Virus record (IMG/VR): IMGVR_UViG_2547132274_000005
Coordinates: 1 to 6,997 of that record
Reading direction: 5' to 3' (one strand)
Length of the DNA: 6,997 bases
Source of the DNA: a virus
Lineage: Duplodnaviria; Heunggongvirae; Uroviricota; Caudoviricetes
Position numbers and translations under genes: made by a program. Below, one piece after another: positions 370 through 938 of this stretch (position 1 is its first letter; each line of letters starts with the position of its first letter). The notes under the pieces are model-generated. The model did not search any database. It was not told the DNA's origin and was given only the letters and a program-made list of their open reading frames with translations.

Positions 370-600
370 TTAATGGAGTTTGTTTTGCTGCTGGATGAGC
401 TGCTGAAGCTCGCGCAGATCATCCGCCAGATAGCTGAAAACAGAGGCGGAATAGCTGTTCGATAGTGCGTGACTGCGTTCATGCAGCATATTGATGTGCA
501 TGATTTGCGCGACACGGAATGCGCGGAAAAGTCTGCGGTTGATTTCAGTCTGGATGTGACGACGCTCCGCGATAGCGCGGTGCTGTTTGCGGTTTGCCAT
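370..600 (-). CDS. Small basic protein, 76 aa (MANRKQHRAIAERRHIQTEINRRL...), function unknown; possible nucleic-acid-binding regulator
   Basis: ATG at 600 is preceded by GAGG at about 7 nt spacing. The N-terminus is arginine/lysine-rich and the C-terminus looks heptad-like. Track ORF 370..600. Confidence 0.55.
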   Translation of the reverse strand: MANRKQHRAIAERRHIQTEINRRLFRAFRVAQIMHINMLHERSHALSNSYSASVFSYLADDLRELQQLIQQQNKLH

Positions 601-632
601 GGTGTGGCCTCTGTAGTTGCAAGTTTTGAAAA

Positions 633-667
633 CTCACCATCCAGAGGTTGCAATTCTGGGTGGTGAG
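633..667 (+). other. Stem-loop: 13-bp stem (one G.U pair on the + strand transcript) with 9-nt loop GGTTGCAAT
   Basis: 633-645 ctcaccatccaga pairs with 655-667 tctgggtggtgag. The single non-Watson-Crick position is a G.U pair on the + strand and an A/C mismatch on the minus strand, a weak hint that the + strand RNA is the one that folds. The loop carries the repeated motif. Confidence 0.45.
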
Positions 668-830
668 ACGTACGGGGTTGCAACCACCGGCAACTACAGA
701 AACCGGCCCGACCGAAGTCGGCCCCGTACGCCCCACCATAATTCGTGTGCGAAAAAGACGTGGCGATACGGTACGCACAAAAAAACCGCTGGCGCGGTTG
801 TGCGCTGTAGTTGTCAGCGGGGGTTGCAAT
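646..830. repeat. Three copies of motif GGTTGCAA(C/T)(C) with palindromic core TTGCAA: 646-654, 676-685 (perfect 10-bp palindrome GGTTGCAACC), 822-830; a fourth TTGCAA at 617-622
   Basis: Direct reading of the sequence. TTGCAA is not clustered like this anywhere else in the window. Copies 1 and 3 sit in 9-nt loops of local hairpins (the stem for copy 3 is only 4 bp, 818-821 with 831-834). Confidence 0.6.
779..798 (-). terminator. Putative rho-independent terminator for the leftward operon
   Basis: On the minus strand: ACCGC-GCCA-GCGGU hairpin (5-bp GC-rich stem) followed directly by UUUUUUU (+ strand A-run 779-785). It lies about 150 nt downstream of the stop of the last operon gene at 939. 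Confidence 0.45.
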
Positions 831-938
831 CCCGGCACTCGTTTTATGAGGTGCAGCGGAAATGTAACCTGACTGATTGCGGCATGGCAAGCGGTTTTTT
901 TGTGTATACATGGGTTAACCTTCTGGCAGTGACACGGA

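Follow-up and report, generated by a model that had tools for sequence, protein, structure and literature searches.

The ORF-poor gap between the start of a 76-aa ORF (position 600) and the next minus-strand ORF (939) in the 6,997-nt stretch of DNA analyzed here (the window) harbors, with a probability of about 90%, a minus-strand antisense-RNA immunity cassette of the P1 c4/P4 CI/N15 CA/Gifsy-1 IsrK family. The cassette is an ordinary, so far unannotated member of the known c4/CI system with an isrK-like leader, and its host is the early region of a P88-like (P2-like, Xuanwuvirus) prophage. An earlier note on this DNA had described the gap as noncoding, with copies of a palindromic motif, some of them in hairpins, next to a putative terminator, and had proposed antisense immunity of the P4 CI or P1 c4 type. 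The gap, the motif copies (including an extra TTGCAA), the palindrome, and the hairpins were all found where they had been placed, and the kind of system was recognized correctly; the details, such as the strand and the pairing logic, turned out to be different.

Searching the window against Rfam, we obtained a match to the complete C4 antisense RNA model (RF01695, positions 1-87 of 87) at 743→656 of the minus strand, with 82.1 bits against the gathering threshold of 45 (E = 1.6e-15), and a match to the complete isrK model (RF01394, positions 1-77 of 77) at 854→779 of the same strand, with 53.2 bits against the threshold of 50 (E = 1.5e-9). The margin of the isrK score is small, 3 bits over the cutoff. 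The C4 search had been proposed as a check in the earlier note, and the CI region of P4 yields the same pair of matches. Indeed, the isrK→C4 tandem is present in all 15 related phage loci and in P4, on the strand of the downstream gene; in the window, the flanking genes are all on the minus strand. The c4-a1b1 model (RF03163) has no match in the window at E ≤ 10, a 311-nt search included, despite the presence of the a1 and b1 sites (Table 1); in N15, PhiR12_1, yong2, Kp4865-1, and P4, this model scores 39.5-46.2 bits, below its cutoff of 46.7, and overlaps the isrK matches.

Table 1 Features of the cassette and ORFs considered in the same region. The a and b labels are assigned by analogy with P1, whose numbering may differ.
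Feature	Positions	Strand	Description
Cassette promoter (P4 P_LE/P_isrK equivalent)	861-890	-	-35 TTGCCA (890-885), 18-nt spacer, -10 TACATT (866-861)
isrK-like leader RNA (P4 seqA RNA/c4 a1b1 leader)	779-854	-	Rfam RF01394
Upstream target of the junction element (b1, seqA part)	818-834	-	CGGG-AUUGCAAC-CCCCG
Upstream target of the loop element (a1)	805-813	-	CAACUACAG, exact complement of the c4 hairpin-2 loop
Rho-independent terminator of the leader	777-799	-	AACCGCGCCAGCGGUU + U7; terminator scan, 3' hairpin of the isrK model
c4/CI-type antisense RNA	656-743	-	88 nt; Rfam RF01695; MFE fold
Recognition element 1 (a2-type)	691-702	-	12-nt hairpin-2 loop UUUCUGUAGUUG
Recognition element 2 (b2-type)	674-685	-	Unpaired junction GGUUGCAACCCC; copy 2 of the earlier note, 10-nt palindrome
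Conserved hairpin of the unprocessed mRNA	633-667	-	13-bp inverted repeat 633-645/655-667, 9-nt loop
Downstream target of element 1 (a')	608-620	-	GCAACUACAGAGG, includes the Shine-Dalgarno sequence AGAGG (612-608)
Putative regulated gene	370-600	-	76-aa P4-epsilon-like "derepression" (anti-repressor type) protein; Pfam PF25738, BLASTP
Candidate ORF, 205 aa	294-911	-	Protein-coding reading
Candidate ORF, 144 aa	545-979	-	Protein-coding reading; weak "Ash family" match
Candidate ORF, 74 aa		+	Protein-coding reading

The c4-type RNA consists of a 17-bp outer stem around two hairpins and an unpaired 3' junction, and the minimum free energy (MFE) fold of 743-656 alone (-49.0 kcal/mol) is the consensus structure of the family; hairpin 1 shows compensatory changes in relatives (alignment columns 140-144/149-153). 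The hairpin-2 loop exposes CUGUAGUUG for pairing, and the junction, which is unpaired in both the Rfam consensus and the MFE fold, reads GGUUGCAACC in the window and GUGGAAACC in the P88 allele, whereas the loop element of P88 is identical to that of the window. These segments belong to two families of repeats. The motif GGTTGCAA has four matches in the region (646-653, 676-683, 678-685 on the other strand, and 822-829) against 0.38 expected, a number reached in none of 200 shuffles; its overlapping copies on both strands produce the 10-nt palindrome GGTTGCAACC at 676-685, and TTGCAA occurs also at 617-622. The second repeat, CTGTAGTTG, which the earlier note missed, has three matches (611-619 and 805-813 on the plus strand, 691-699 on the minus strand) against 0.07 expected, again with no equal in 200 shuffles. 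Together, GGTTGCAA and CTGTAGTTG are the two recognition elements of the antisense RNA and their targets, each element being complementary to one leader site and one downstream site. The proposal that all copies of the palindromic motif pair with one another does not hold: the antisense element is copy 2, and it has two targets of the same sense, copies 1 and 3. In relatives, the two targets share a single sequence, which is complementary to the RNA yet not palindromic. The TTGCAA palindrome is peculiar to the window allele (GUGGAAA/UUUCCAC in P88), and its self-complementary junction might allow the RNA to dimerize and the two target loops to kiss each other.

The promoter at 890-861 is the only sigma-70-like site that the promoter scan finds within 280-1200, and the transcript start predicted from it, approximately 854, is the first base of the isrK match. 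The -35/-10 pair lies at an equal distance upstream of the isrK match in 16 of the 16 loci compared, including P4, where we take the site at the matching position to be the known P_LE promoter. The leader itself contains, in this order, a first hairpin, a second hairpin that presents the first target, the single-stranded second target, and the Rho-independent terminator. Copy 3 of the earlier note is, as described there, the loop of a 4-bp CGGG/CCCG hairpin, which lies within 818-834; this segment forms a 17-nt inverted repeat (88%) with 673-689, and its duplex with the c4 junction has a predicted energy of -25.1 kcal/mol. The a1 site is imperfectly matched in 6 of the 16 loci (4-5 nt perfect), such that the leader interaction is not uniformly strong. 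The terminator suspected in the earlier note was recovered as well, as a hairpin at 784-799 with the U-run on the minus strand only, and it is functional only on that strand. Thus the arrangement typical of isrK, an upstream promoter (890-861) with a 3' terminator (799-777), is in place, and read-through would connect the leader with the downstream part of the cassette. Upstream of the promoter, a 23-nt stretch (909-887) is complementary to the leader terminator and could let transcripts of the early operon bypass it.

Past the c4 RNA, the 13-bp hairpin with a 9-nt loop that the earlier note had detected around copy 1 has as its 5' arm the strand that closes the c4 outer stem on the 3' side, and its loop (654-646, AUUGCAACC) provides element 2 with its downstream target (b', seqC part); this hairpin is predicted in the alignment consensus and shows compensatory changes (columns 195-200/226-231). 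The downstream target of element 1 forms an 11-nt perfect inverted repeat with 690-700 and a 13-bp duplex with the loop element (-18.6 kcal/mol), and the AGAGG that it includes lies 7 nt ahead of the ATG of the 76-aa gene at 600. The product of this gene is an epsilon-like, predicted anti-repressor, a borderline assignment: it scores 27.9 bits against the cutoff of 27 for the Pfam family Derepression (PF25738) and shows 27% identity to P4 epsilon over 66 aa (BLASTP, E = 6e-7, residues 1-62). Proteins of this type are named "derepression protein" by PGAP/GenBank, and a search of NCBIfam yielded no matches for the 76-aa, 99-aa (partial), and 66-aa proteins. On the 3' side of the 76-aa gene lies a hypothetical ORF (start at 297) that extends beyond the window edge; in P88, the gene for the replication endonuclease gpA comes next. 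Elsewhere, the genes downstream of the tandem encode anti-repressors (Rha/Ant in lambdoid phages and N15) or epsilon (P4).

The elements and their targets co-vary between heteroimmune relatives: the sequences change and the complementarity stays. In a MAFFT alignment of the 15 related phage loci that was not fitted to the structure, the positions predicted to pair between the leader and the c4 RNA are paired in 97.9% of cases, with both-side changes in 15 of the 16 pairs (compensatory changes in 6/7 of the leader/junction pairs and 9/9 of the a1/loop pairs); the covariation score is 0.900 versus 0.208 in shuffles, none of 500 shuffles is as good, and slid registers are only 25-55% paired. The downstream targets are out of register in this alignment and were examined by a register-free search for perfect complements over 16 loci, which contain 13 different loop sequences and 13 different junction sequences. 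Each junction is matched by a perfect complement (≥7 nt) that lies at a constant offset in its own leader and by another past its own c4, the latter a 7-8-nt complement located 2-7 nt beyond the c4 RNA in all 16 loci; non-cognate pairs reach such a complement in only 3-4% of cases. Likewise, a cognate 6-10-nt perfect complement of the loop lies beside the Shine-Dalgarno sequence in 16 of 16 loci, adjoining or overlapping it. At closer range, the same allele occurs in Escherichia coli, for example, in ECCNB12-2 (97% identity), where the differences in the c4 stem keep the pairing (two changes create wobble pairs, and one is a compensatory replacement of U-A by C-G).

By homology with the characterized systems, the cassette would be expected to work as follows. 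The promoter, which looks constitutive, would start a transcript the first 76 nt of which form the leader with its two target sites and terminal terminator, and read-through transcripts would run on into the 88-nt c4/CI-type RNA. By analogy with P1, P4, and Gifsy-1, this RNA would be excised from the transcript and act in trans, with its loop and junction elements pairing with the downstream sites 620-608 and 654-646. Such pairing would hide the ribosome-binding site, switching off the anti-repressor-like 76-aa protein, and the genes behind it (the hypothetical ORF and replication gene A) would be silenced through polarity or premature termination; an immunity phenotype would presumably result. 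The terminated leader, with its decoy copies of the targets, may act against the RNA, an effect demonstrated for IsrK of Gifsy-1.

Within the same cassette, the RNA might act mainly by causing premature transcription termination, as in P4 and N15, rather than by blocking the ribosome-binding site, a mode that we regard as possible albeit somewhat unlikely; the two modes are compatible with each other. The colinearity with P4 (promoter, isrK/c4-a1b1 leader, CI RNA, downstream target, intervening ORF, epsilon, primase alpha) and the location of the leader targets directly upstream of an intrinsic terminator point in this direction, as does the summary of P4 CI as a termination factor acting via seqA and seqC (PMC4825925). 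However, the downstream loop target overlaps the Shine-Dalgarno sequence in 16 of 16 loci, as predicted by ribosome-binding site occlusion (the P1 mode), and the terminator scan detects no intrinsic terminator on the minus strand past the downstream targets. The earlier note had also considered the palindromes of the GGTTGCAA motif as operators for a dimeric DNA-binding protein, such as the basic 76-aa protein or the 81-aa winged-helix protein, given that one copy is a perfect 10-bp palindrome and every copy contains the 6-bp palindrome TTGCAA; a winged-helix/MarR-like protein is indeed encoded nearby (2494-2739). In close relatives with the same flanks, however, the same three positions are not palindromic (GTGGAAA/TTTCCAC in P88, CTGCGAA/TTCGCAG in 4B11, GTTCCAA/TTGGAAC in Shae), and the conserved feature is the RNA-type complementarity of copy 2 with copies 1 and 3, at sites within two RNA genes that score strongly against covariance models. 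With the complementarity conserved and the palindrome not, the operator reading is effectively excluded, and we consider it extremely improbable. The alignment of homologs called for in the earlier note accordingly revealed compensatory changes and no retention of the palindrome itself; loss of TTGCAA, which had been named as counter-evidence, did occur, but since the changes are compensatory, it supports the RNA reading.

Given that ORFs annotated as "transcriptional regulator" or "hypothetical protein" (P88_4B11, 569R5, P88) or "Ash family protein" (Hafnia phage yong2) overlie the same RNA, a protein-coding function of the region has to be weighed too. The Phage_ASH family (PF10554) matches the frame through c4 with 48.6 bits in yong2 and 59.7 bits in the legacy P4 "cI" ORF, but with only 21.4 bits here, below the cutoff of 26, and the 205-aa and 74-aa ORFs belong to no family. 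A short ORF of Gifsy-1, orf45, which starts from an AUG inside the RNA, is reported to be translated (PMC4825925). Yet the ORF from the conserved c4 AUG ends after 14, 15, 37, 64, or 100-148 aa in 11 loci, is open throughout the examined sequence in the other 5, and shifts its frame with respect to the downstream gene; indels of 1 nt and 11 nt distinguish relatives, the substitutions are pairwise compensatory rather than codon-patterned, and the nucleotide sequence is conserved whereas the amino acid sequence is not (PMC4825925), so that coding is very unlikely. We give even less credence to a functional RNA from the plus strand, the orientation implied in the earlier note by a G.U pair and a promoter. 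The single non-canonical pair of the 633-667 hairpin is, as stated there, G.U on the plus strand and C.A on the minus strand, and folding of both strands shows that the plus strand also folds well (z = -5.5), as the complement of any structured RNA does, with the minus-strand MFE fold being the c4 consensus. But several conserved G.U pairs of the minus-strand RNA become C.A mismatches on the plus strand, the lambdoid relatives have the equivalent hairpin without a mismatch on either strand, the Rfam search of the window gave no plus-strand family above noise, and the U-run of the terminator and all flanking genes belong to the minus strand. The letters of the proposed plus-strand promoter (TTGAAA-17-TGCAAT) are present but fail a standard sigma-70 scan, the conserved promoter being on the minus strand, where the RNAs of the cassette are encoded.

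The antisense-RNA cassette is widespread: its RNA is present in approximately one fifth of the complete E. coli genomes (1163/5426 at ≥80% identity) and carries no annotation in the records examined from RefSeq, P88, and Shae_phiSM. An exact match of the 20-mer CCGGTGGTTGCAACCCCGTA in a MAG contig labeled "Cytophagia" (L018) is due to chance: the matching segment is unrelated coding DNA, a megablast search of this contig with the whole window returned nothing, and about one chance match is expected in 596 Gb. The main value of the present analysis is the correct annotation of a structured-RNA switch, which joins three literatures that have mostly been kept apart (isrK, c4, and P4 CI/seqA) and offers a clean natural case of the evolution of antisense specificity (heteroimmunity), in which two elements and four targets change together and reassort independently. 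It is mildly notable that a P2-like (helper-type) phage has a P4-style cassette ahead of its replication gene A; P2 and 186 lack such a cassette, and P88-type P2-like phages belong to the class exploited as helpers by P4 satellites. For work on phage-satellite evolution, the occurrence of a P4-like cassette and an epsilon-like gene in a phage of the helper type offers a modest lead; tentatively, and with the odds against it, the complete cassette of P88-type phages could represent a satellite module shared with, or captured from, helper-type phages. If so, the epsilon-like protein might derepress heterologous P2-type prophages. Our literature search found no paper that joins P2-like phages with c4 antisense RNA.

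In P1 and P7, c4 is a same-strand, operon-internal antisense RNA that acts through two short elements in the immI operon (c4-icd-ant), and heteroimmunity results from a few base changes in the recognition elements. The mature RNAs of the c4 family are approximately 77-80 nt long, are processed by RNase P from the operon transcript, repress downstream expression, and confer immunity. According to Citron and Schuster (1990), c4 is said to pair around the ribosome-binding site of a gene that is located upstream of, or encodes, the anti-repressor. The c4 mechanism has been summarized recently (PMC12197685). The likeness to P1 is drawn here through the Rfam model and the published description; the downstream gene is icd/ant in P1 and P7 but encodes the epsilon-like 76-aa protein in the window. 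In the N15 cassette (cA RNA, gp31, antirepressor), the anti-repressor is preceded by the tandem of isrK (62.4 bits) and C4 (78.8 bits), with element/target complementarity, but N15 is a phage-plasmid and differs from the window in the downstream genes and in the element sequences.

The IsrK-orf45/STnc1160-AnrP locus of Gifsy-1 (Salmonella) has the order of promoter, terminator-ended short RNA, read-through, processed RNA of approximately 80 nt, and anti-repressor that is predicted for the window, and the experimentally supported helix between isrK G28/G31 and orf45 C162/C159 corresponds to the leader/junction pairing of the window at isrK offset 25-31 (PMC4825925). The emphasis in Gifsy-1 is different, with IsrK as a trans-activator and orf45 translation coupled to anrP; Hfq binding and the trans-activation of downstream translation by IsrK are known only from the Gifsy-1 experiments (PMC4825925). 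In the window, the ORF from the equivalent AUG uses another frame and extends across the start of the 76-aa gene to stop 55 nt within that gene; hence translational coupling of the Gifsy-1 type is not conserved.

The closest parallel in gene order is P4, for which the CI/seqA/seqC mechanism has been described and of which the seqA RNA has IsrK as a structural homolog, with a processed RNA of approximately 80 nt downstream (PMC4825925). P4 has the same Rfam order and strand (isrK, 60.8 bits; C4, 74.9 bits), and its c4-a1b1 score, 44.1 bits, falls just under the cutoff of 46.7, in overlap with the isrK match. As in the window, the promoter lies at the same distance, two elements are matched both upstream and downstream, the last target covers a Shine-Dalgarno sequence, and the cassette precedes an epsilon-family gene followed by a replication gene. 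In contrast to the window, where the epsilon-like gene comes directly next, P4 has a 64-aa ORF between the targets and epsilon, with the loop target overlapping the Shine-Dalgarno sequence of that ORF. The 121-aa ORF after the epsilon-like gene is unrelated to P4 orf151, and a comparison of P88 gp15 with orf151 found no similarity. The mode of action in P4 is termination, which is one of two candidate modes for the window. P4 is a satellite, whereas the window belongs to a full P2-like phage with Cox/C, gpA, and structural genes; the element sequences differ between the two, and therefore a different immunity specificity is expected.

The Rfam scan of the window detected two full-length RNA matches on the minus strand, namely, isrK (RF01394) at 854->779, with 53.2 bits against a threshold of 50, and C4 antisense RNA (RF01695) at 743->656, with 82.1 bits against a threshold of 45. 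The latter, well over the curated cutoff, is the outcome of the covariance-model search for C4 that the earlier note had proposed; when the scan was repeated on 590-900, the plus strand yielded noise only. Folded alone, 743-656 adopts the family structure as its minimum free energy (MFE) fold, with a 17-bp outer stem, two hairpins, the second of which bears an open 12-nt loop, and a 3' junction left unpaired. RNAs of this kind are well known and detectable by existing Rfam models, and the window adds another member, distinct in its specificity.

All ORFs surrounding the cassette are on the minus strand as well. The transcript start predicted from the promoter position, ~854, coincides with the first base of the isrK match, and the promoter is found at the same distance in all 16 loci compared, including that of P4, where we take the site to be P_LE. 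The c4-type RNA carries two recognition elements, a loop and a junction, each of which is matched by a leader target and a downstream target. The predicted duplex of the junction element has -25.1 kcal/mol with the leader target and -15.8 kcal/mol with the downstream one; the loop element has -12.5 and -18.6 kcal/mol, respectively. The 5' arm of the 667-633 hairpin also forms the 3' side of the outer stem of c4, and the AGAGG within GCAACUACAGAGG lies 7 nt ahead of the ATG (600) of the 76-aa ORF.

Features of the cassette in the window; copies 1-3 are the palindrome-cored motifs of the earlier note (646-654, 676-685, 822-830)
Feature	Position and sequence	Strand	Remark
Promoter	-35 TTGCCA 890-885; -10 TACATT 866-861	minus	sole sigma-70-like site in 280-1200
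Leader hairpin 1	ahead of hairpin 2	minus	
Leader hairpin 2	CGGG-AUUGCAAC-CCCCG, 834-818	minus	copy 3
Leader loop-element target	CAACUACAG, 813-805	minus	single-stranded
Leader terminator, U7 run	799-777	minus	
c4-type RNA hairpin-2 loop	UUUCUGUAGUUG, 702-691	minus	recognition element
c4-type RNA junction	GGUUGCAACCCC, 685-674	minus	recognition element; copy 2
Downstream hairpin	667-633, loop AUUGCAACC 654-646	minus	copy 1
Downstream loop-element target	GCAACUACAGAGG, 620-608	minus	includes Shine-Dalgarno AGAGG
13-bp hairpin	arms 633-645/655-667 (the downstream hairpin above)		present
Short hairpin	around 822-830 (leader hairpin 2 above)		present
Terminator-like hairpin	784-799 (within the leader terminator above)		present

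The motif copies and hairpins described in the earlier note were all recovered at the stated positions. In the window, GGTTGCAA starts at 646, 676 and 822 and, on the other strand, at 678 (4 matches vs 0.38 expected; none of 200 shuffles reached 4), the palindrome GGTTGCAACC being formed by the matches at 676 and 678 together. The earlier note overlooked a second repeated 9-mer, CTGTAGTTG, at 611-619(+), 805-813(+) and 691-699(-) (3 matches vs 0.07 expected), and the additional TTGCAA at 617, although present, is merely a portion of the downstream loop target.

We compared 15 related loci, from P88, P88_4B11, 569R5, Citrobacter Shae_phiSM, eight lambdoid phages (six Stx-converting or close relatives, Salmonella 118970_sal3 and E. 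coli PhiR12_1), Klebsiella Kp4865-1, N15 and Hafnia yong2. In all 15, isrK and then C4 are encoded on the same strand as the downstream gene, which in the annotated lambdoid and N15 loci encodes a Rha/Ant anti-repressor. The recognition elements are hypervariable, with 13 loop sequences and 13 junction sequences in 15 combinations. Nevertheless, perfect complements of 7 nt or more to each junction occur both in the cognate leader, at offset 25, and 2-7 nt past the cognate c4, and each loop has a 6-10-nt perfect complement adjoining the downstream Shine-Dalgarno sequence; among non-cognate pairs with different elements, the cognate minimum for the junction is reached in only 3-4%. The junction element and the sequence of its targets are GGUUGCAACC and AUUGCAACC in the window, GUGGAAACC and UUUCCACC in P88, CUGCGAACC and UUCGCAG in 4B11, and GUUCCAACC and UUGGAACC in Shae. 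For covariation, the window and 14 related loci (569R5, whose c4 and leader elements duplicate those of P88_4B11, was omitted for that reason) were aligned with MAFFT without reference to structure, and RNAalifold paired the leader with c4 unprompted. In this alignment of 15 sequences, 97.9% of the cells are paired, with both-side changes in 15 of the 16 pairs and a covariation score of 0.900 vs 0.208 in shuffles (0/500); slid registers are paired in only 25-55%.

The loop and junction elements have reassorted independently of each other among phages (L001-L015, the related loci): the window has the loop element of P88 with a different junction, and Stx2a_131990 and P13374 have a common junction with different loops. 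In six loci (1720a-02, P13374, ArgO145, Salmonella sal3, Stx2c and yong2), the leader loop-target is degenerate and the downstream copy perfect. Two unrelated Rfam matches were encountered, an ALIL pseudoknot (120.9 bits; L003 2042-2158) in the flank of Stx2a_131990, an IS3-family frameshift element, and sRNA-Xcc1 (79.6 bits; L008 279-362) near the P13374 anti-repressor genes.

Because the junctions and targets of the relatives differ yet stay complementary, the palindrome is an accident of the window's allele, and RNA-RNA complementarity is the selected property. This excludes the alternative put forward earlier, that the repeats are operators for a dimeric DNA-binding protein; likewise, the expectation that homologues losing TTGCAA would argue against both readings was ill-posed, given that complementarity persists while the sequence changes. 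A self-complementary junction is seen only in the window's allele, which is also found in E. coli ECCNB12-2 (L016); none of the 12 other junction alleles seen is palindromic. An 18-nt junction oligonucleotide (689-672) has a predicted self-duplex of -27.9 kcal/mol, cofolding of two c4 RNAs is predicted to gain -9.8 kcal/mol relative to the monomers, and the two target loops (646-654 and 822-830) can pair mutually (-9.3 kcal/mol, predicted). An RNA on the plus strand was rejected, with no model match and no acceptable promoter (including the one suggested in the earlier note), a terminator U-run confined to the minus strand, and G.U pairs that favour minus. Protein coding was rejected too: the ORF from the conserved c4 AUG comprises 14-148 aa in eleven loci and, in the remaining five, is open through the examined sequence; its frame is not constant with respect to that of the downstream gene; indels of 1 nt and 11 nt separate the relatives; and the Pfam Phage_ASH match in the window is under threshold.

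This family (PF10554, 'Phage_ASH / Ash protein family') matches translations through isrK/c4 (CI) RNA genes: in the window, with 21.4 bits at 656-802, in the frame of a 144-aa ORF (545-979, minus); in Hafnia yong2, with 48.6 bits (L015 808-1491); and in the legacy 'cI gene product' ORF of P4, with 59.7 bits (L017 8168-8584). PF10554 is probably, for the most part, a translated conserved RNA locus, that is, a spurious or, at best, leader-peptide family, and the 'Ash family protein' and 'transcriptional regulator' annotations across the isrK/c4 region are suspect.

The sequence comparisons establish the RNA family, the strand and fold, where promoter and terminator lie, and the two-by-two complementarity with its covariation. 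By analogy with P1, P4, N15 and Gifsy-1, the c4-type RNA would be excised from read-through transcripts and act in trans on the downstream sites. Because the loop target covers the Shine-Dalgarno sequence, we prefer the P1 mode, in which translation of the epsilon-like gene would be blocked and the genes behind it affected by polarity; P4-type induced transcription termination is a live, if less likely, alternative. The terminated leader, which holds the strongest predicted partner of the junction element, would probably serve as a decoy or anti-antisense RNA, like IsrK in Gifsy-1. A 23-nt inverted repeat (887-909 vs 771-793; 87%, with a 12-nt perfect core AAAAAAACCGCT/AGCGGTTTTTTT) makes 909->887 of the minus-strand RNA complementary to the leader terminator in its 3' half and U-tract. 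This segment is upstream of the cassette's own start site and, therefore, occurs only in transcripts from the upstream early operon; in the MFE fold of 915->765, its pairing replaces the terminator (-53.7 kcal/mol, z -5.6), and it may be a promoter-specific anti-terminator. Its promoter-proximal half (904 to the promoter, with the 12-nt core) is shared without change by P88, P88_4B11 and Shae_phiSM; the lambdoid phages, N15 and P4 lack it.

P88-like P2-type phages (Peduoviridae, Xuanwuvirus) match the region with 83-96% identity; in them, it lies between early-region genes and the genes for a 'derepression protein', a hypothetical protein and the replication endonuclease gpA. Of 5426 complete E. 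coli genomes, 1163 have the cassette at 80% identity or more; the RefSeq record examined has no RNA annotation on it. The gene upstream (1153-1977, minus) encodes a 274-aa SPFH/Band-7 lipoprotein (PF01145, E 5.5e-31), whose P88 counterpart is a 'lipoprotein / serine protease' in GenBank, and precedes an uncharacterized 66-aa ORF (939-1139, minus; phrog_3871); the cargo at the lipoprotein position is variable, with other genes in 4B11, 569R5 and Shae.

The literature search found no paper linking c4 RNAs to P2-like phages, and a 2025 review handles IsrK and c4 as unrelated systems (PMC12197685). The Rfam families isrK (RF01394, outside any clan) and c4-a1b1 (RF03163, clan CL00128) describe the same leader element; their matches overlap in N15, PhiR12_1, yong2, Kp4865-1 and P4. 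IsrK has been described as a structural homologue of the P4 seqA RNA, with an ~80-nt processed RNA (STnc1160/orf45') downstream, and the helix between isrK G28/G31 and orf45 C162/C159 is supported by mutation (PMC4825925); this Gifsy-1 helix matches the leader/junction pairing of the window. P2 and 186 lack the cassette; P88-type helper-class phages thus have a P4-like immunity/epsilon module situated immediately ahead of gene A. In P4 (NC_001609), whose system is the nearest known counterpart, the C4 match is the CI RNA (8507-8420, 74.9 bits), isrK matches 8692-8615 (60.8 bits), and the overlapping c4-a1b1 match, with 44.1 bits, is slightly below the 46.7 cutoff; past the CI RNA follow a target site at a Shine-Dalgarno sequence, a 64-aa ORF, epsilon ('helper derepression protein'), orf151, orf106 and primase alpha. 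The alignment of the 76-aa protein with P4 epsilon starts at residue 1 (27% identity, E 6e-7), and the protein narrowly passes the cutoff of Pfam PF25738 'Derepression' (27.9 vs 27). The window cassette is thus colinear with the P4 immunity/left operon.
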